A stretch of 64,000 nucleotides of DNA from Actinomycetes bacterium (lineage in GTDB: Bacteria; Actinomycetota; Coriobacteriia; Coriobacteriales; JAEZXW01): assembly GCA_023419515.1 (NCBI GenBank), contig JAEZXW010000028.1:6411-70410 (forward strand), read 5' to 3'. The first letter of the stretch is position 1. Each line of letters starts with the position of its first letter. Of this stretch, positions 5,125-56,567 are shown piece after piece. Both the position numbers and the translations under genes were made by a program. The notes beneath the pieces are model-generated. The model saw only the letters and a list, made by a program, of their open reading frames with translations, did not search any database and was not told the origin of the DNA.

Positions 5125-6501
5125 TCACGCGAGCGTTCCCAGCCCGAGCGCCTGAAAGATAAAAAGCGCAATCGTGAGCAGGGCGACCACGATGATGGTT
5201 GCCCAGAGCAAAACATTCCAGAGCAGACCGTTGGCGTAGTTTCCCATGATGTGCTTGTCGTTGATGATAAAGACCATAAACACGAGCAAGATGGGGAGCA
5301 AAACGCCCGAGACCACCTGCGCCATCACCATCACGGCAAAGAGATTGATACCAGGGATTAAAACAATAATGACCGAGATTACAAGGATACTGGTTAAAAT
5401 ACCCTTGTAAGCAGGGGCTTCGCTCCAGCTTCGGTCGGTTCCACGCTCCCAGCCAAAGGCTTCACAGATGGCAGAGGCAGTTACTCCTGGCAAGACGCAA
5501 GCCGCCAAGAACGAGGCGGCAACCAAGCCTGCTGAAAAGAGCATCTCGGCGTAAGGGCCTGCGATAGGCGCGAGGGCTCGGGCGGCATCCGCCGCCTCTT
5601 CGATCACGATGCCCGCGGGGTGCAAGACCGCTGCGGTCGTCACGATGATGAACCACGAAACCACGCAGGCGATAATTGCACCACTCACCGCATCAACACG
5701 TTGATAGATGAGGTCTTTGATCTCTGCGCCTTTCTCGACCACCGAGCTTTGCGCCAAAAAAATCATCCATGGTGCGATTGTTGCACCAATGGTAGCGATG
5801 AGCAGCGAAAAGAAATTGGAGTCGGGAACAATCTGAGGCACAAAGGTGTCGTGCATGACCTCGCCCCACGAAGGACCAGCCAAAAAGGCCGCAACCACGT
5901 AGGTGATAAAGACGCAGGAGACCGCCAGTAGGATCTTTTCGACGCGTTTGTACGAGCCGCTCATAACGAGCAACCATACTATGATGCCTGCCAGCGGCAC
6001 GCTCACGTATTTGGGGATACCAAAGAGCTCCATGCCCGAGGCGATACCAGCAAATTCAGAAAACGTGACGGCAATGTTTGACGAGAGCAGCGCGAGCATG
6101 GCGAGTGAGGTGAGTCTGATGCCAAAGCGCTCGCGAATGAGCGACGAGAGCCCTTTGCCGGTGACCGTTCCCATTCGCACTGCTGATTCTTGGACGACGA
6201 CCAGCAAAAAAGTCATGATGAGGATCATCCAGAGGGTCTTGTAACCAAAGAGTGCTCCGGCGTTGGAGTAGGTCGAGATACCACCGGCATCGTTTCCCGC
6301 CATGGCAGCAACAAAGCCTGGACCCATCGCAGCGAGCATGAGAAGCCAGCGAGGACGTTCTTTCTCAGACTTGGCCGGTGCGCCCTGAGTGCCTGGTGTG
6401 CTCTGGATTTGGGTGTTTGGCGTTCCTGTTGCATGGGCACCCTCTGCGTCGTGAACGCCCTGATTGCCCTGCGCTTTTCTTGCCTTAAACAAGAGCGTCA
6501 T
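5125..6501 (-). CDS. SLC11/NRAMP-family transporter with an NRMT-type (Mg2+-type) altered metal site
   Basis: About 11 TM helices. TM1 reads GPGFVAAMAGNDAGGISTYS (canonical DPGN becomes DAGG). TM6 reads IGATIAPWMIF (canonical ..MPH becomes APW). The ATG is 1 nt downstream of the stop of the preceding CDS. Confidence 0.8.
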   Translation of the reverse strand: MTLLFKARKAQGNQGVHDAEGAHATGTPNTQIQSTPGTQGAPAKSEKERPRWLLMLAAMGPGFVAAMAGNDAGGISTYSNAGALFGYKTLWMILIMTFLLVVVQESAVRMGTVTGKGLSSLIRERFGIRLTSLAMLALLSSNIAVTFSEFAGIASGMELFGIPKYVSVPLAGIIVWLLVMSGSYKRVEKILLAVSCVFITYVVAAFLAGPSWGEVMHDTFVPQIVPDSNFFSLLIATIGATIAPWMIFLAQSSVVEKGAEIKDLIYQRVDAVSGAIIACVVSWFIIVTTAAVLHPAGIVIEEAADAARALAPIAGPYAEMLFSAGLVAASFLAACVLPGVTASAICEAFGWERGTDRSWSEAPAYKGILTSILVISVIIVLIPGINLFAVMVMAQVVSGVLLPILLVFMVFIINDKHIMGNYANGLLWNVLLWATIIVVALLTIALFIFQALGLGTLA

Positions 6502-6502
6502 C

Positions 6503-8329
6503 TTAGATCAGTCCAACCATGCGCAGGCCAGCTAATACACAGCCAATAAAAGCAAGGCTTGAGACGGTCATCACCATCGGCGTGATGATGCTCGATGAGA
6601 GCGGGCGCTCGATTTTATCGGCGTATTCAAACAATGCGATAAGCGGTGTGGTACAAGCAATCACCAGCGCGCTGATGAGCGCCACTGAAATACACAAGAC
6701 AAGTAGCGCCTCTTGTGGCAGGTGAGGAGCGGTAGCGACGGTTCCCGCGCCATAGAGGGTCAGCGCAAAGAGCGCACCCATCAGGATGCCCAGACCGCTG
6801 TGGCGTAAGACCTGTTGGCTGCGCTTAACCCGGGCGTCCTCATCGTCATCATCTGCCTCAATGAGTTGGGCAGTTGCAAAGCTTGTTGTGTCAGCCGCCA
6901 CAAGAATGATGACGGGCAGGAGCAATACAAGCGAGATGCCATAGGGAAGCTGGGTGACAAATACCACGATGGTAAGGACGACCCAGATAAAAAACCACGT
7001 GCTGCGCGTTAAGAACCAGCGCAGGTCATGGCCTGGCTTATCGTCCTCAGCGCTCACACCTCGGCTTGAGCCTGCTAGCTGCAAATCTTCGAGATGCTCT
7101 TCTTGCATGACTTCGAGGGCATCGTCAACCGTGACAATACCGAGGAGCACGTTGTTCTCATCAACAACTGGCATGGCAACCAAATCATACTTTGCAATTT
7201 GCGAGGCGACTTCTTCTTGGTCTTCGTCAGGATCAATGGTAATGAGATCGTTGAATGCCAGCTCGTGCAACTTTTGCTCAGGGGAGGCGCACGCAATGTC
7301 GCGGAGCGAAAGTACGCCTTTCAGCACACCCGTGTCGTCGATCGTATAGATGTTATAGACCGTCTCGTGATCTTCATCGAGGTTGCGCAAGACCTCGATA
7401 GCATCGGCGGCGCTCGCATGCTCATCAAGGGCAACGACCTCGGTCGTCATGATACCGCCAGCAGTCTTGTCGCGATAGCCTAAGAGCTTTCGGATGGCGC
7501 GCTGCTCGTCAATACCCATGAGCTTGAGGAGGCGCTCTGCTTTATCGTACGAAAGCTCGCCGATCAGATCGGCCGCGTCGTCTGGATCCATCGAGGCGAT
7601 CATGTCGGATGCCTTGCGATCAGGCAGGTCATCGATGACGTCTGCTTGGTATTCGCCTTCCATCTCGGCCATGGTGTCTGCCGCCCGCTCGGTATCCAGC
7701 TGAGCAAAGACACGAGCCCTCAAACGAGGATCGAGTTGCTCGATAATATCGGCGACGTCTGCCGGGTGCAGCTCATCCAAGCGCTTATGCGAAACCGAAA
7801 GCTTCACCTGAGACAAATCGCGTTCAAGCAGATCCATGTAGTTCCAAGCGATGAGCTTTTCGGGGATTGGTCGTCCAATGAGCTGGGCAATCTTGGTGGT
7901 GATCTTGTCGAGCTGAGGAGAGAGGGTATGTAACAACCCGCGCAGACCAACCTCAGCGCCGAGTAGTCGGAGCTGATCTTTGCCAGAGAGCGAAAGCTTG
8001 AGATCGTTGACGCGAACGACCTTCATACCTTGAGTGTCGACAATTTGCTTGTCCATGAGATCGCGGTTAAGCAAAAGCTCAGAAGGCTGCAGGTAGCTAA
8101 AGCGAATTTCATGCGCGGGAACGGCAAGACGGATGCCCTCCTCATCGAGGGACTCAACATATTTGCGCCAGCTGATCATGAACGGTGTCTTTGAGGGACC
8201 ACGAAACGCAAGTGAGGTCACCCGAGGAAAGACCTCGCCGGTGGCAATGCCAAGATCATTGACGGTTCCGATTTTTTCGCCCGTGGCATCAAACACGGGC
8301 AGACCAAGAATCTGTGACAAATAATTCAT
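6503..8329 (-). CDS. PRC-barrel + MgtE-N + tandem-CBS protein with a divergent 5-TM MgtE-like membrane domain
   Basis: SD AGGAG lies 5 nt before ATG 8329 (MNYLSQILGLPVFDATGEKIGTV..). An MgtE_N-like region is present (LHPADVADIIEQLDPRLRARVF) along with CBS pairs. The C-terminal 5 TM helices lack the GGNxGxQ and DPA pore motifs (PVIILVAADTTSFATAQ; ERPLSS). Confidence 0.7.
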   Translation of the reverse strand: MNYLSQILGLPVFDATGEKIGTVNDLGIATGEVFPRVTSLAFRGPSKTPFMISWRKYVESLDEEGIRLAVPAHEIRFSYLQPSELLLNRDLMDKQIVDTQGMKVVRVNDLKLSLSGKDQLRLLGAEVGLRGLLHTLSPQLDKITTKIAQLIGRPIPEKLIAWNYMDLLERDLSQVKLSVSHKRLDELHPADVADIIEQLDPRLRARVFAQLDTERAADTMAEMEGEYQADVIDDLPDRKASDMIASMDPDDAADLIGELSYDKAERLLKLMGIDEQRAIRKLLGYRDKTAGGIMTTEVVALDEHASAADAIEVLRNLDEDHETVYNIYTIDDTGVLKGVLSLRDIACASPEQKLHELAFNDLITIDPDEDQEEVASQIAKYDLVAMPVVDENNVLLGIVTVDDALEVMQEEHLEDLQLAGSSRGVSAEDDKPGHDLRWFLTRSTWFFIWVVLTIVVFVTQLPYGISLVLLLPVIILVAADTTSFATAQLIEADDDDEDARVKRSQQVLRHSGLGILMGALFALTLYGAGTVATAPHLPQEALLVLCISVALISALVIACTTPLIALFEYADKIERPLSSSIITPMVMTVSSLAFIGCVLAGLRMVGLI

Positions 8330-8504
8330 AGTGCTCCTGATGCAAGACATAGCAGTGTGATGATGATGTTAGGTACCCTCACACGCCTTACTCAAAAAGC
8401 ACATGAGGGCTATCAACTGAACGGTCGGTCTTTCAAGCGATAGCCTTTCTACAACGATTGTTCAAAACGATTGTAACTGACCCAGCATAACAAATAGCCA
8501 GTCC

Positions 8505-8546
8505 AATAAAAAGAGCAGCTCCTCGCTTGAGTGCGAAGAGCTGCTC
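8505..8546 (-). terminator. Rho-independent terminator downstream of the NhaC-family gene
   Basis: On the minus strand: GAGCAGCTC-(16 nt)-GAGCTGCTC followed by TTTTTAT. The plus-strand arms are at 8513-8521 and 8538-8546. Confidence 0.7.
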
Positions 8547-8632
8547 GGATTCACGTTTGTACGATGGTCTGGCTGTTTGCTCGGTTGAGGTGAGACGCGC
8601 CTTGATGGCAGGAGCGTCGTGGTTGGTGCGGT

Positions 8633-10156
8633 TTAGGCGGCAGCCTCTGAGGCAGCATCTGAGCGCTGCTGCAATACCTTGATGGTAAAGACGCCGATTG
8701 CCACGAGGACAAGAGCAACGCCCAAGCCAATCCAACCGTTTTGCGTAAAGCCTGCCACGAGGTAGGCAATAAACGATGGGATGGCGGCACATAGTGCATA
8801 CGGGATCTGGGTCGTGACGTGCGTGAGGTGTGAAACACCAGCGCTTGCCGAAGACAAGATCGTCGTGTCGCTGATTGGTGAGATGTGGTCACCATTGGCA
8901 GCGCCTGCCAGTACAGCTGCGATCGAAATCACCATGAGGCTTGAGAGGCCATCGTTAAAGACGGTGACGATGATCGGGATCAAGATACCAAAGGTTCCCC
9001 AGCTCGTACCTGTTGCGAACGCGAGTCCCAGTGCAAAGAGGTAGAAGCAGGCAGGTACCAGGGCAAGTGCTACGTTGTGTGACTCGATGAAGCTTGAGAC
9101 AAACGCGCCACACTCGAGGTATCCTTCGCCCGAAACACCCGAGAGTGTCCATGCGAGCGTCAGGATCAAGATAGCTGGCACCATGGCGTTAAAGCCCTCA
9201 GTTAGGCAGGCATTAAACTCCGCAAAGCTCATGAGCCTTTCTGTCAGATACAAAACTGCCGTTACAAAGATGGTAAGCATGCTGCCCAAAACCAGTGAAA
9301 ACGCAGCATCACAGTTGGCAAATGCATCGATGATGTTCTTGCTCTCTAAGATACCGCCGGTCACTAGCATAAAGCAGATACACGAGACGACAAGCACCGC
9401 GATCGGGATGATGAGGTCGTGGATCTTACCCTGGCGAGAGCCGCTCATTGCCTCTTCAGGAAGTTTAGCTTCGATGCTGTCAAAGGTATTTGTGCTCTCA
9501 AGCATCTGCTCATGAGCGCGCATCTTGGAGAAGTTTAATCCCAGTGCGGTGATCACGAAGAGTAAAAAGAGCGAGCTCAATGCATAGAAGTTATAGGGAA
9601 TCGCCTGCAAAAAGAGGTTAAATCCATCGATTGAGCTCGTCTCGGGTAATGAGCTTGAAACAGCAGCTGCCCAGCTTGAGATCGGCATGATGATGCAGAT
9701 CGGCGCTGCGGTTGCGTCGATGATGTACGAGAGCTTTGCGCGGCTGATCTTGAACTTATCGGTGACAGGCTTCATGACCGTACCGACGGTCAGGCAGCTA
9801 AAATAGTCGTCAACAAAGATAAGAGCACCCAGGCCGGCGGTCAGCCCCTCTGCTTGGCGTTTGCTTTTGATCTTGGAAGCAGCCCATTGGCCATAGGCTT
9901 TGGTAGCACCTGACTTCTGGACAAGCGCGACGATCATGCCCAGCAAGACGAGAAATACTACGATGTTAACGTTGTTCGATACCTTTGTTCCCATCACCTC
10001 AAGCGTGGTGCTTGCAGCGGCGATGATGTCAAATTGTGTGTAGAGCATAGCTCCAGTGAGAACGCCCACTAAAAGTGAGACGTAAACCTCTTTGGTTGCA
10101 AGCGCCAAAACAATTGCAATAAGCGCTGGAACCAAAGACCAAAATGTCGCTTCCAT
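8633..10156 (-). CDS. NhaC-family Na+/H+ antiporter-like membrane transporter
   Basis: Polytopic protein. The start MEATFWSLVPALIAIVLALATKEVYVSLLVG.. is the typical N-terminus of this family. The 37-codon upstream extension in the ORF track is not hydrophobic and has no SD. Confidence 0.7.
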   Translation of the reverse strand: MEATFWSLVPALIAIVLALATKEVYVSLLVGVLTGAMLYTQFDIIAAASTTLEVMGTKVSNNVNIVVFLVLLGMIVALVQKSGATKAYGQWAASKIKSKRQAEGLTAGLGALIFVDDYFSCLTVGTVMKPVTDKFKISRAKLSYIIDATAAPICIIMPISSWAAAVSSSLPETSSIDGFNLFLQAIPYNFYALSSLFLLFVITALGLNFSKMRAHEQMLESTNTFDSIEAKLPEEAMSGSRQGKIHDLIIPIAVLVVSCICFMLVTGGILESKNIIDAFANCDAAFSLVLGSMLTIFVTAVLYLTERLMSFAEFNACLTEGFNAMVPAILILTLAWTLSGVSGEGYLECGAFVSSFIESHNVALALVPACFYLFALGLAFATGTSWGTFGILIPIIVTVFNDGLSSLMVISIAAVLAGAANGDHISPISDTTILSSASAGVSHLTHVTTQIPYALCAAIPSFIAYLVAGFTQNGWIGLGVALVLVAIGVFTIKVLQQRSDAASEAAA

Positions 10157-53813: not shown

Positions 53814-56567
53814 TTACTTATCGGGAGTATCCGCTGGTGTATTTGCACCCACGCGGCTGGCATCTGGGCTGCCATCGGCTGCAGCGTCGCGGTCGCTGTC
53901 TGCGTTTGCATGCTCTGATGGCATTTCATTAAACGTACCACGCTCTTCAAGCTCACAGAGTTCTTTGTGCAATTTTTCCAGATCAAAATGGTGGTGTTCG
54001 TTGTGTCCTGAGGTTGCCTCGGAGGCATCACTGTGGGTGTGTTCGTTATCGCCGAGGGTCTCGATGATATCTTGAATGACTGGCGTATCTTCGGTCAGCG
54101 CCTCTTGATTGAGCGCTCGTGAAGCGCCTGCTGCCCTGAGTCGGCGACGCATCATGATAATGATGAGCAAAAAGAGGAGGATGCCACCTATAAAGATGAG
54201 CTTGAGGTCAACACGAGAGCTTTCGATAGGGATGACCTGTGTTTTTACGATTTCATTTTTGGCGCGAACCTCGATGGTGAGCGCATTTTTGTCGGGGTTG
54301 CCGCCCGCCGGACCGCTGTCGATCTTGATTGGGATCTGCAGGTAGTTGTCGCCTGCCTTGGTGCTTGCGGTCACACCTTCGATGTACTTTTGGTCGTTAA
54401 CCTTTACCTGCCCGGATCCATGCGCAGTGATGGTGAGGGTGAGCGCAATGTCGTTCACGTTTTTGATGACGGCGGGGATACTTGCTGTGTTGGAGTTGAG
54501 CTTGGAGCCTGGGCTTGTGATGGTGATCGAGTCAAAGATGTTCTGAACGAGATCGGTCACAGCGCGCGCTTGCTCCTCGGCTCCCTGGGGCTCATTAAGC
54601 GCCTGCCATTGAGCCGATGAAGCGCTCACAAAGTACTGCCAGGCAGTTTTGACTTGCGTCGAAAGTGGTGAGCTGGCATCTGCCAAGATAAGGAGCTTTT
54701 TATGAGCTTCTTTGATGGCTTGCGTCTCTGCATTGGATGGCTCATCACTTGAGCTGGTAGCTGCAGTATCTAAGCCATTTGTTGAGGTTGTTTGCGATGG
54801 TTGTTGCTTGGTATTTGATGTTGGGTCGATAAGATCAAGTTGAACCTCGGTTTTTTGATCAGCGATTTTATCGGCAAACTTGAGTTGTACGAGAGAAACT
54901 TTGCTCAAGAATTGGATGTTTTTGCGTAGGTTGCCAAAGGCTTCTTCATCACCCGTGAGCTGGGCGACTAAGACCATGGGGACATCGTGAACGGATTCGG
55001 TGGCTTGGGCGCTGGCGATCAAAAGGCTGTGCTCGGCAGCAAATGCTTCAATAAAGACGTCGTTTGATTGCGAGGTAAGCATTTTGCTGAGTGACTCAGA
55101 ATAAAGCACTGCATTTGTCTTCGCGTTGACCTGCAAGAACTTCTGTGGAGCATCTTGGGTTTGCGGGAGGATGATAAGCGGGACTTCCTTTGCCTCAAGC
55201 TCATAGCTTAGCGGGCGCGAGAGCTGATGAGCAGCAAGCAGTAGTCCCGGTTCAACCGAGAGTTCGGGTAGCGGACGGTCATCAAAGGCAGTTTCCTTAT
55301 CAGGGAGCAACATCGCCTTTGCTTCGTTGATGGCGCCAAGTGATTGCAGAAGATCGAGGTCAGGATAGCTTTCGCCCGAGCTTATCACTTTAAGTTTGCC
55401 GCTTTCGACCTTTTGCTGCATCTTGGCTAAGAGGTTGCGATAGAGTTCATCGGTCTGGCTAAGTGCCTGCCAGTCTCGTAGGGTGACCTGAGAAAACACG
55501 AGAGTAATGGGGTTATGGAGTTCGGGACCGGTTGTCTCGAGTAAGAGATCAAGCTGATGGGCAATGCGATCCGACCGCTTAAGGAGCGCGGACTGATCAT
55601 TGGCAGCAGCTTGGTTTGCGTCGTTGGGGGCGTCGCTGTTGTGCTGATCGTTAGCTGGCGCTTGATCAGTCGCTATCTGATCACTAGTCGCCCCTTGGCT
55701 GCCCGCGGCTGACTCGGCAGAAAGCTGCTTGGTTTGTGCATCTTGAGTTTGAGGGTCACCTTGCATCTGATCTTGCGTTTGACCCTCGTTTTGTCCCGCT
55801 TGAGTGGCGACGTTGTGGGTATCTCCTGCGACTGCCACCTGCTGATCGAGCGGATACATGAGAGGCGGGAGGCTGACGTTGATGAGGATGCCACCATCAA
55901 GCCTGAGCGTCGTGTCGTGCAGATAGGTCTTGTACACCAGGGTTTGCTCACGCTTGCCCTTGAGTGAGTTCAGGGTCACTCGGGTCTCAACGGTGTAAAT
56001 TCCCGGAGAGAGTTCTCGCGGGTTTCTGCTGTTGTACGCCGCATTTTGCGGAGCGAGTGAGGCGCGTATGGCGTGCTCGCCAGCTTCAGGATCATTCCAG
56101 CGATCTTGAGAGCGGGCAATCGTCGTGCCGTCGGTGTCGAGGAGTTTGACTTGCGAGGTGAGCCTCGTGGTATCTTCTGGAACTTCAACATTGATATCAA
56201 CGAGTAACGTATTGTTAATCTGCTGGGTGGCAGCAAGGGTTACCTCTGCCAATGAATCGCCTTCGCTTGAGATTTGAGGAGCAAGGGCGCCCTGGTATGC
56301 CTCGTGATTTGCATTGAGGTGCGACCACGCGATCTTGTATGAGGCGGGGGCTGCCAGACTTGAGTGCGGTGCAAGAGACGCCGCGCCCAGCACGGTCATC
56401 AATGCGAGGCAGATGGCGGTAAACATCAGTATGGCTTGCCGAGATGCCGACAAGAATCGTTGATATGTCTGAGTAATAATAGAGCCAGTCATTACGTGAT
56501 CTAGACGAGTAGCGTATAAATGAGTTGTCCTAGCGTAACAGGAGTGTTCCCGCTGGTGTATGCGCAT
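53814..56567 (-). CDS. Large type-I membrane ectoprotein (signal peptide, ~770-aa ectodomain, C-terminal TM, His/Asp-rich cytoplasmic tail)
   Basis: Signal-like region ILMFTAICLALMTVLGAASLAPHSSLAAPA. A Q/D/N-rich linker is present. The C-terminal TM helix LIFIGGILLFLLIIIMM is followed by RRRLR. The start is ambiguous (56567 or 56492). No family was recognised with confidence. Confidence 0.6.
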   Translation of the reverse strand: MRIHQREHSCYARTTHLYATRLDHVMTGSIITQTYQRFLSASRQAILMFTAICLALMTVLGAASLAPHSSLAAPASYKIAWSHLNANHEAYQGALAPQISSEGDSLAEVTLAATQQINNTLLVDINVEVPEDTTRLTSQVKLLDTDGTTIARSQDRWNDPEAGEHAIRASLAPQNAAYNSRNPRELSPGIYTVETRVTLNSLKGKREQTLVYKTYLHDTTLRLDGGILINVSLPPLMYPLDQQVAVAGDTHNVATQAGQNEGQTQDQMQGDPQTQDAQTKQLSAESAAGSQGATSDQIATDQAPANDQHNSDAPNDANQAAANDQSALLKRSDRIAHQLDLLLETTGPELHNPITLVFSQVTLRDWQALSQTDELYRNLLAKMQQKVESGKLKVISSGESYPDLDLLQSLGAINEAKAMLLPDKETAFDDRPLPELSVEPGLLLAAHQLSRPLSYELEAKEVPLIILPQTQDAPQKFLQVNAKTNAVLYSESLSKMLTSQSNDVFIEAFAAEHSLLIASAQATESVHDVPMVLVAQLTGDEEAFGNLRKNIQFLSKVSLVQLKFADKIADQKTEVQLDLIDPTSNTKQQPSQTTSTNGLDTAATSSSDEPSNAETQAIKEAHKKLLILADASSPLSTQVKTAWQYFVSASSAQWQALNEPQGAEEQARAVTDLVQNIFDSITITSPGSKLNSNTASIPAVIKNVNDIALTLTITAHGSGQVKVNDQKYIEGVTASTKAGDNYLQIPIKIDSGPAGGNPDKNALTIEVRAKNEIVKTQVIPIESSRVDLKLIFIGGILLFLLIIIMMRRRLRAAGASRALNQEALTEDTPVIQDIIETLGDNEHTHSDASEATSGHNEHHHFDLEKLHKELCELEERGTFNEMPSEHANADSDRDAAADGSPDASRVGANTPADTPDK

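Follow-up and report, generated by a model that had tools for sequence, protein, structure and literature searches.

A predicted pore-less MgtE derivative encoded beside an NRMT-clade transporter in a Coriobacteriia genome: a candidate divalent-cation sensor acting in trans

Among the Mg2+ importers of bacteria, NRAMP-related magnesium transporters (NRMTs) constitute a fourth class. The structurally studied member is an uncoupled carrier, and we know of no device that prevents overload through it. In the retrieved text of Shin et al. (2014, PLoS Genet, PMC4072509), most nrmT genes are described as being preceded by a gene for a homologue of the MgtE N-terminal cytoplasmic domain. These arrangements were named 'mgtE-nramp operons', their control by an M-box was noted, and feedback regulation or a metal-chaperone activity was speculated for the accessory protein. 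Here such a pair is analysed in a 64,000-nucleotide stretch of contig JAEZXW010000028.1 (assembly GCA_023419515.1), from an Actinomycetes bacterium of the order Coriobacteriales; this whole stretch is called the window. The NRMT-clade gene of the window is preceded by a gene for an MgtE-derived protein with a membrane domain of its own, referred to as the accessory. The favoured reading, to which we assign a probability of about 0.55, is that the accessory would be a cytosolic divalent-cation sensor regulating the NRMT in trans, its five-helix membrane domain serving as a vestigial anchor or dock. A preceding sequence-only reading of the window knew of no characterization of the pairing. It had already been reported, however: as far as the retrieved text goes, Shin et al. 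described it, proposed feedback and co-expressed one pair.

Two other systems serve as references. The NRMT of Eggerthella lenta, EleNRMT, is described in the retrieved text of its structural paper (Ramanadane et al. 2022, PMC8806188) as working without H+ coupling and as having no cytosolic domain. The same text defines the NRMT signature as DxxG in alpha-1 together with TxxA/T in alpha-6, and text searches of the paper found no mention of a partner protein. In Thermus MgtE, the functional sites are Mg2 (E258), Mg3 (D259), Mg4 (D91/D247), Mg5 (D226/D250), Mg6 (D95) and Mg7 (E59), while the Mg2+ binder of the pore is D432, in the middle of transmembrane helix 5 (PMC5882242). Biochemical work on the accessory later than 2014 was not found in the searched literature.

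The interval 5125-8350 of the minus strand consists of two open reading frames (ORFs), 6503..8350 and 5125..6501. From its first ATG, the former would encode 615 residues. However, the ATG at 8329, which gives a product of 608 residues, has an AGGAG just 5' of it (8338-8334), and the database protein P0001 is 100% identical to that product over its length; the coding sequence 6503-8329 is therefore preferred over a start at ATG 8350. The domains follow one another as PRC, PRC-like segment, MgtE_N, two CBS domains, plug helix and five transmembrane helices. Profile searches (PF05239, PF03448, PF00571) and AlphaFold2 models with a plug helix and five transmembrane helices over residues 444-607 bear out the architecture first read from the letters, namely PRC, MgtE_N and tandem CBS followed by five C-terminal helices. 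The single nucleotide between TAA 6505-6503 and ATG 6501, also noticed at that stage, implies co-transcription with the NRMT gene. On the other side, an intrinsic-terminator-like hairpin (8546-8513) terminates the upstream gene for an NhaC-type antiporter and forms the 5' boundary of the unit, leaving a leader of about 180 nucleotides up to the accessory start codon. Spacer and hairpin together make the locus a two-gene operon, in which the accessory and NRMT genes are probably translationally coupled. Neither an M-box (RF00380) nor any other Rfam element reaches its gathering score in the whole window, leader included, and a search of the region 8250-8750 at E<=10 returned sub-threshold noise only, with no RF00380 match. 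A leader RNA, M-box or other, as the element controlling the operon was thus rejected. The coordinates of the features are collected in the table.

Features of the accessory-NRMT operon (positions in the window; basis of each assignment in the last column)
Feature	Position	Strand	Basis
Intrinsic-terminator-like hairpin, 14 bp stem and T run	8513..8546	-	terminator scan
Shine-Dalgarno-like AGGAG, 5 nucleotides 5' of ATG 8329	8334..8338	-	sequence reading
MgtE-derived accessory coding sequence, 608 residues and stop	6503..8329	-	ORF, Pfam and NCBIfam domains, P0001 identity
PRC-barrel domain, residues 1-62	8144..8329	-	PF05239, E 8e-11; predicted local distance difference test (pLDDT) mostly 74-94
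Second PRC-like segment, residues 79-135, contains KQIVDTQGMKVVRVNDLKL	7925..8095	-	run of invariant alignment columns
MgtE_N helical domain, residues 187-287	7469..7771	-	PF03448, E 1e-27
Tandem CBS domains and start of plug helix, residues 293-415	7087..7453	-	PF00571, two stretches; 2yvx alignment
Five-helix membrane domain, residues 444-608	6506..7000	-	AlphaFold2 models; L001 bridge; profile-profile alignment
Acidic cytosolic loop between helices 2 and 3, E491-D498, EADDDDED	6836..6859	-	alignments, loop charge count
Spacer, single nucleotide (G) between TAA 6505-6503 and ATG 6501	6502..6502	-	sequence reading
NRMT-clade NRAMP transporter coding sequence, 458 residues and stop	5125..6501	-	PF01566, E 2e-87; best PDB match 7qia
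Alpha-1 metal-site motif N70-D-A-G-G74	6280..6294	-	DxxG replaces NRAMP DxxN
Alpha-6 metal-site motif G239-A-T-I-A-P-W245	5767..5787	-	Met to Ala243, His to Trp245

The cytosolic part of the accessory resembles a working MgtE sensor. Pfam detects the PRC domain, MgtE_N and both CBS domains, and the protein aligns to Thermus MgtE (2yvx) with an E value of 9e-43. When the Mg2+ sites are mapped onto it, the ligands of the MgtE_N domain correspond to D218 (E59), D250 (D91) and D254 (D95), and those of the CBS domains and plug helix to D382 (D226), D403 (D247), E406 (D250), E414 (E258) and D415 (D259). Each of the eight positions that provide a cytosolic Mg2+ ligand in Thermus MgtE is thus Asp or Glu in the accessory. 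In the family of accessories with five transmembrane helices, the Mg4 pair is Asp in 100% of members and the plug-helix pair is acidic in 85% and 95%. The residues on which Mg2+ sensing depends in MgtE therefore appear to be retained, which supports regarding this part as an intact-looking sensor of the MgtE type.

This picture varies over the wider family. In the accessories devoid of transmembrane helices (L024-L078), the equivalents of D91 and D247 are mostly Ser (37/54 and 30/54); tallied position by position, Asp occurs in 17/54 and 16/54. The forms with five helices or one helix retain Asp at both positions of the Mg4 pair.

N-terminal to the sensor lies a module that is absent from canonical MgtE. 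Residues 79-135, with KQIVDTQGMKVVRVNDLKL and its flanks, are the best-conserved stretch of the accessory family, and since the counterpart of this stretch in locus L025 matches PF05239, it can be considered PRC-like. Residues 79-126 (7952-8095, minus strand) are nearly invariant and served as a search pattern across phyla.

The membrane domain is far harder to place. Pfam finds no PF01769 (the MgtE transmembrane family) in the accessory, nor in the membrane domains of 23 family members at E<=10, and a profile of this domain alone finds no match in the PDB at E<=10. The TIGR00400 (mgtE) model scores the accessory at 232.7 bits, just under its cutoff of 232.75, and direct hhalign of the membrane domain to the MgtE profile is marginal (E 0.041). 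Direct recognition of the domain as MgtE by sequence thus failed, and the relative L033, discussed below, failed as a bridge as well (E 0.67). Another relative, L001, does connect the two families: its membrane domain matches the canonical MgtE profile with an E value of 1.7e-12 and the Coriobacteriia family profile with one of 2.7e-13. When three L001-like intermediates are added to the family profile, it aligns to MgtE over 172 columns with an E value of 1.6e-5. Furthermore, an AlphaFold2 model of the membrane domain alone (pLDDT 81, predicted template modelling score 0.75) has the membrane domain of Thermus MgtE as all of its top seven Foldseek matches in the PDB (E about 0.01, probability 1.0, TM-score about 0.5), with everything below these at E>=1. 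On the basis of the fold match, the L001 bridge and the combined profile, the domain is a highly diverged but true MgtE membrane domain, homologous in fold and in descent, a connection that can be drawn only by way of the fold and of intermediate sequences.

The elements that make MgtE a channel do not seem to have survived. In the profile-profile alignment, P321-x3-G325-T-G-G-N329-x3-Q333 of MgtE is placed opposite P472-x3-L476-V-A-A-D480-x3-F484 of the accessory, and P472, equivalent to P321, is the sole residue of the helix 2 motif that is preserved. D432 corresponds to M587; this position is Met in 40/56 family members and acidic in none. The 'DPA' Asp was ruled out as the selectivity site, since it is D418, whereas D432 sits in the motif LSDVTG. 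The sequence-only reading, which had proposed an MgtE derivative with a divergent membrane domain and a degenerate pore, thus holds up: homology of the membrane domain follows from bridge and fold, and the pore residues are not intact in the alignment to MgtE. Its strings PVIILVAADTTSFATAQ in helix 2 and ERPLSS in helix 5 are both present, but its register was off, as the equivalent of Q333 is F484 and not Q488, and as D418-P-A falls on I573-E-R, one residue away. Judging from these alignments, the accessory would be pore-less, with none of the pore determinants of MgtE.

The membrane domain also evolves at another pace than the remainder of the protein, with a pairwise identity within the family of 29% in the transmembrane region versus 67% in the cytosolic part. 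This difference, together with the orthologues that have one transmembrane helix or none and still neighbour an NRMT gene, suggests that the domain evolves fast and is dispensable. The loop between helices 2 and 3 is strongly acidic, with EYDxDDEDAPS as the family consensus, and may be a new site for a cation or for a partner. It stands where MgtE has a loop that is both basic and acidic, RALATRDLDLRDW.

These observations bear on the first of two alternatives that had been left side by side by the sequence-only reading, namely two Mg2+ routes under one control, or a sensor or regulatory partner of the NRMT. If the operon held two independent uptake routes behind one promoter, the five-helix protein would still be an ion channel, with altered selectivity. 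The retained five-helix MgtE fold, the conserved Mg2+ sites of the plug helix and the partly conserved Asp at the N329 position of helix 2 could be understood in this way. Yet a channel is difficult to reconcile with Met in place of D432, with the disappearance of the glycine motif from helix 2, with a membrane domain that is 29% identical in the family and fails PF01769, and with orthologues that keep the NRMT partnership with one or no transmembrane helix, so that two routes seem very improbable. The sensor or regulatory partner fits much better, because the membrane domain evolves fast, lacks pore determinants and has been cut down to a single helix or lost altogether in NRMT-linked relatives.

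The downstream protein belongs to the NRAMP family (PF01566, E 2e-87). Of the PDB chains it comes closest to EleNRMT (7qia, E 6e-160), to which it is 63% identical over 411 residues; canonical NRAMP/MntH chains found in this search do no better than E 8e-29. Both strings reported at the outset are found, NDAGG in alpha-1 and GATIAPW in alpha-6, with the replacements of Asn by Gly and of Met by Ala. Membership of the NRMT clade is clear from these similarities. Compared with the signature, the protein reads DAGG-ATIA (D71-A-G-G74, A240-T-I-A243). The DxxG element is present, with Gly in place of Asn. TxxA/T as a whole is not, since the change from Met to Ala is found and the Thr is lacking, its position being occupied by Ala240, equivalent to Thr224 of EleNRMT and Ala223 of ScaDMT. 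The first His of the H+ pathway in alpha-6b is replaced by W245, and the equivalents of Gln379 and Glu133, Q395 in alpha-10 and E149 in alpha-3, are kept.

The position of Ala240 deserves attention, since the T224A variant of EleNRMT kept Mn2+ transport while its Mg2+ transport was no longer detectable (retrieved text of PMC8806188). On this account, Mg2+ activity is not to be assumed for the window protein. The assignment to the NRMT type in the sequence-only reading was therefore right as to the clade, and its step from there to Mg2+ is weakened by the exchanged signature Thr, which it had missed. Among 70 accessory-linked transporters, NDAGG occurs in 64, and the alpha-6 motif is GTTIAPW in 49 and GATIAPW in eight. 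The flanking sequences divide these eight into two groups, which suggests that the change from Thr to Ala arose more than once. The change is seen in the window protein and in those of L012, L016, L017, L019, L020, L022 and L023, loci labelled Cryptobacterium or Eggerthella.

It could be imagined, then, that the operon serves the uptake of Mn2+ or of divalent cations in a broad sense, with a carrier mainly for Mn2+ and a partner that senses Mn2+ or the total divalent load. Besides Ala240 and the behaviour of EleNRMT T224A, this would agree with the lack of an M-box in the window and with the accessory-linked transporter of Acidobacterium capsulatum, which behaved mainly as an Mn2+ carrier and rescued an Mn2+-transport mutant better than an Mg2+-transport mutant (retrieved text of PMC4072509). 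It accords less well with the three remaining signature positions, which are of NRMT type, and with the loss of Met, a soft ligand by which transition metals are favoured. Moreover, all eight MgtE Mg2+-ligand positions are kept in the sensor, relatives are controlled by an M-box or are fused or linked to MgtA, and GATIAPW is found in only 8/70 paired transporters, in the two flanking-sequence groups. An operon devoted to Mn2+ or to broad uptake is therefore regarded as unlikely, though it is the most serious of the competing explanations.

The association of the two genes is widespread. Related loci numbered 80 in a scan restricted to a single genome for each species, and 71 of these have an NRAMP homologue directly 3' of the accessory gene on the same strand. 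These 71 pairs come from Coriobacteriia, Chloroflexota, Thermodesulfobacteriota, Margulisiibacteriota and Actinomycetota. Of the nine other loci, seven are on contigs that end too early, leaving L030 and L033 as real exceptions. An Nramp gene is also next in 4/4 named five-helix members, from Olsenella, Enorma, Atopobium and Collinsella, with gaps of -1 to +13 nucleotides; gaps of -4 to +15 nucleotides are found in most Coriobacteriia and Chloroflexota relatives. The adjacency across related genomes, put up for testing by the sequence-only reading and examined here on the 71/80 loci and the 4/4 named members, is far beyond chance, and these comparisons support a tight coupling that is conserved across phyla. 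Fusions of accessory and NRMT were not seen among the loci scanned. The very long 'NRAMP ORFs' of L024, L027 and L062, considered as candidate fusions, are most likely frames that are open 5' of the true start and overlap the accessory gene in another frame.

Within these loci, the accessory occurs in three forms, all of which still precede an NRMT gene. A soluble form of about 415-430 residues is found in Chloroflexota, Thermodesulfobacteriota, Margulisiibacteriota and Actinomycetota. A form of about 450 residues with a single C-terminal helix occurs in loci labelled Eggerthellaceae, Eggerthella or Cryptobacterium, and it is behind this form that the closest relatives of EleNRMT among the loci (about 85% identity) are situated. 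The third, with five helices and about 600-650 residues, comprises the proteins of the window, L001 and L002 and the homologues from Atopobium, Olsenella, Collinsella and Enorma. In a rough neighbour-joining tree of the cytosolic domains, made without support values, the soluble forms constitute one clade, the one-helix forms are nested among the five-helix forms in the Coriobacteriia group, and L033 is sister to that group. This tree suggests a stepwise loss of the membrane domain, and the membrane-anchored five-helix form seems to represent an intermediate of this evolution that has not been described before.

Several relatives are tied to Mg2+ transport by their regulation or by their partners. 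In L001 and L002, where a five-helix accessory precedes an NRMT, and in L035 and L036, where a soluble one does, an M-box (RF00380, 114-145 bits) lies 5' of the accessory gene; an M-box also occurs 5' of L033 and in L085. A library-wide search with accessory residues 1-185 yielded 481 cluster representatives at E<=1e-10. One of the proteins, P0158 (1314 residues), has PRC, MgtE_N and CBS fused in frame to a complete Mg2+ P-type ATPase of the MgtA type (NF011702, 1145 bits, cutoff 975). In L085:1423-8382, the order is M-box, P0158 gene, gene for a 621-residue five-helix accessory and NRMT gene, the last starting one base after the accessory gene and being truncated by the contig end. The P0158 locus is present on two contigs (L085 and L086) that are 99.94% identical and come from two sequencing runs, which amounts to a single organism. 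With this fusion, the accessory-NRMT pairs and the PRC-MgtE proteins taken together, one sensor module seems to be attached to three Mg2+-transporter architectures.

The stand-alone PRC-MgtE proteins L033 (5313-7794, Chloroflexota) and P0232 pass PF01769 with 41 and 37 bits, respectively. L033 is under M-box control and has no NRMT within 6 kb. At the D432 position it has Ala, and GTGGNTGNQ is exchanged for IVVATVGGQ, so that the pore of the whole PRC lineage may be atypical. Three further proteins of about 750 residues, P0168, P0179 and P0185, combine PRC, MgtE_N and CBS with a different hydrophobic region and a very acidic C-terminal tail rich in Trp, Asp and Glu, for example DWDDWGEGDWDDWGDE.

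A model can be outlined on this basis. The NRMT-clade carrier would import a divalent cation, Mg2+ and/or Mn2+, as its homologue EleNRMT does without H+ coupling. A carrier that is uncoupled and lacks a cytosolic domain provides a rationale for a separate sensor, and the accessory, descended from an MgtE channel and presumably non-conducting, could fulfil this task in trans. MgtE_N and the CBS domains would bind Mg2+ at the acidic sites that close MgtE, while the lineage-specific N-terminal module, the best-conserved part, would dock onto the transporter. The vestigial five-helix domain would mainly keep the sensor at the membrane beside the carrier, and it may relay a conformational change through the conserved plug-helix sites. 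A high cytosolic cation level would thus shut down influx. The domain identities, the loss of pore residues, the retention of sensor residues, the conserved gene coupling and the MgtA fusion are observed; we infer from them a physical interaction between accessory and NRMT, the direction of regulation and the ion sensed. The same role was proposed for the soluble form by Shin et al. (2014, retrieved text of PMC4072509).

Several points weigh against this regulation in trans. Co-expression of the A. capsulatum accessory with its transporter left the rescue of an Mg2+-transport mutant unchanged (retrieved text of PMC4072509), and both C. acetobutylicum NrmT and EleNRMT transport without an accessory (retrieved texts of PMC4072509 and PMC8806188). 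An M-box is lacking from the window. For residues 79-126, the segment proposed to dock, AlphaFold2 gives a pLDDT below 50 in the monomer, as if folding depended on oligomerization or on contact with a partner. D480, at the N329 position, is Asp in 39/56 members and may leave room for a residual membrane function. Finally, the relevant ion may be Mn2+ rather than Mg2+, by analogy of Ala240 with the EleNRMT mutant.

Regulation could also be replaced by assistance, the accessory being a chaperone or scaffold for assembly, stability or metal delivery and not an allosteric gate. When expressed alone, EleNRMT lacked stability in detergent, and 11 consensus mutations had to be introduced (retrieved text of PMC8806188), metal-chaperone activity is the alternative listed by Shin et al. 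(retrieved text of PMC4072509), and the tight translational coupling suggests stoichiometric co-production. Against such a role, the selective conservation of acidic residues at gating sites, plug helix included, exceeds the needs of a scaffold, and NrmT and EleNRMT are functional by themselves; an assistant without gating function is accordingly held to be improbable.

Starting from the sensor in trans, it is tempting to speculate further. PRC-MgtE_N-CBS might be a portable Mg2+-sensing gate used on three unrelated folds, in cis on the MgtE pore and on the MgtA P-type ATPase and in trans on the LeuT-fold NRMT, and the five-helix form might at the same time be a pore-less pseudo-channel subunit that contacts the NRMT in the bilayer and passes on Mg2+ occupancy via the plug-helix sites. 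This combined proposal is tentative, and we consider it doubtful in its entirety.

What the conserved MgtE-like partner does has been a standing question since 2014. The series of membrane forms, the retained gating residues and the MgtA fusion turn it into specific experiments, and they suggest that the EleNRMT structures represent half of a complex. The exchange of Thr for Ala is a warning against reading Mg2+ selectivity from clade membership alone. Coriobacteriia, among them Eggerthella, Collinsella, Olsenella and Atopobium, are commonly found in association with humans.

Other genes in the window were noted as well. A 269-residue PRC-domain protein and a polysaccharide deacetylase are encoded at 515-2784 on the plus strand, a few kb from the accessory-NRMT pair, and their orthologues adjoin the pair in loci of Enorma, Atopobium and Collinsella (L082:1389-3617; L083:7244-9833; L084:1-1973). 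The orthologues of this PRC protein are 37-42% identical to it, and it has no similarity to the PRC module of the accessory. An ORF of 917 residues at 53814-56567 on the minus strand, between a 410-residue ORF and the DnaK gene, gave no Pfam match at E<=1e-5. Elsewhere, the window encodes HypF and a cluster for polysaccharide biosynthesis (Wzy_C twice, Polysacc_synt, DegT).

In comparison with known systems, the pairing itself is already published (Shin et al. 2014, retrieved text of PMC4072509). The operons described there (Ca_c0685 locus of C. acetobutylicum; Acp2976/Acp2977 of A. capsulatum) resemble that of the window in that a gene for a homologue of the MgtE cytosolic part lies directly 5' of the NRMT gene and is co-transcribed with it. 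According to the same text, however, the published accessory is small and soluble, whereas that of the window has 608 residues and five transmembrane helices; the published operons are often, not universally, under an M-box, unlike the window; and the retrieved text makes no mention of a PRC module. To our knowledge, the five-helix form that appears to be pore-less, its descent from MgtE, the series of five-, one- and zero-helix forms, the retained gating sites, the MgtA fusion and the Thr-to-Ala variant are described here for the first time. EleNRMT shares with the window NRMT the DxxG of alpha-1, the replacements of Met by Ala and of His by Trp in alpha-6 and the Gln379 and Glu133 equivalents, and differs in having Thr224 where the window protein has Ala240. 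It was studied partnerless (retrieved text of PMC8806188), and the accessory of its closest relatives has one transmembrane helix against five in the window. L033 and P0232 belong, like the accessory, to the PRC-MgtE_N-CBS lineage and have five transmembrane helices, but their membrane domain passes PF01769, and L033 further differs from the window in carrying an M-box and in lacking an NRMT gene within 6 kb. Thermus MgtE (2yvx, 2zy9, 4u9l) lacks the extra N-terminal PRC and PRC-like module, and the accessory in turn has lost GTGGNxxxQ of helix 2 and D432, escapes PF01769 and stays just under the TIGR00400 cutoff. Nevertheless, both have MgtE_N, the CBS pair, the plug helix and five transmembrane helices in the same order, acidic residues at the eight cytosolic ligand positions and a matching fold of the membrane domain.

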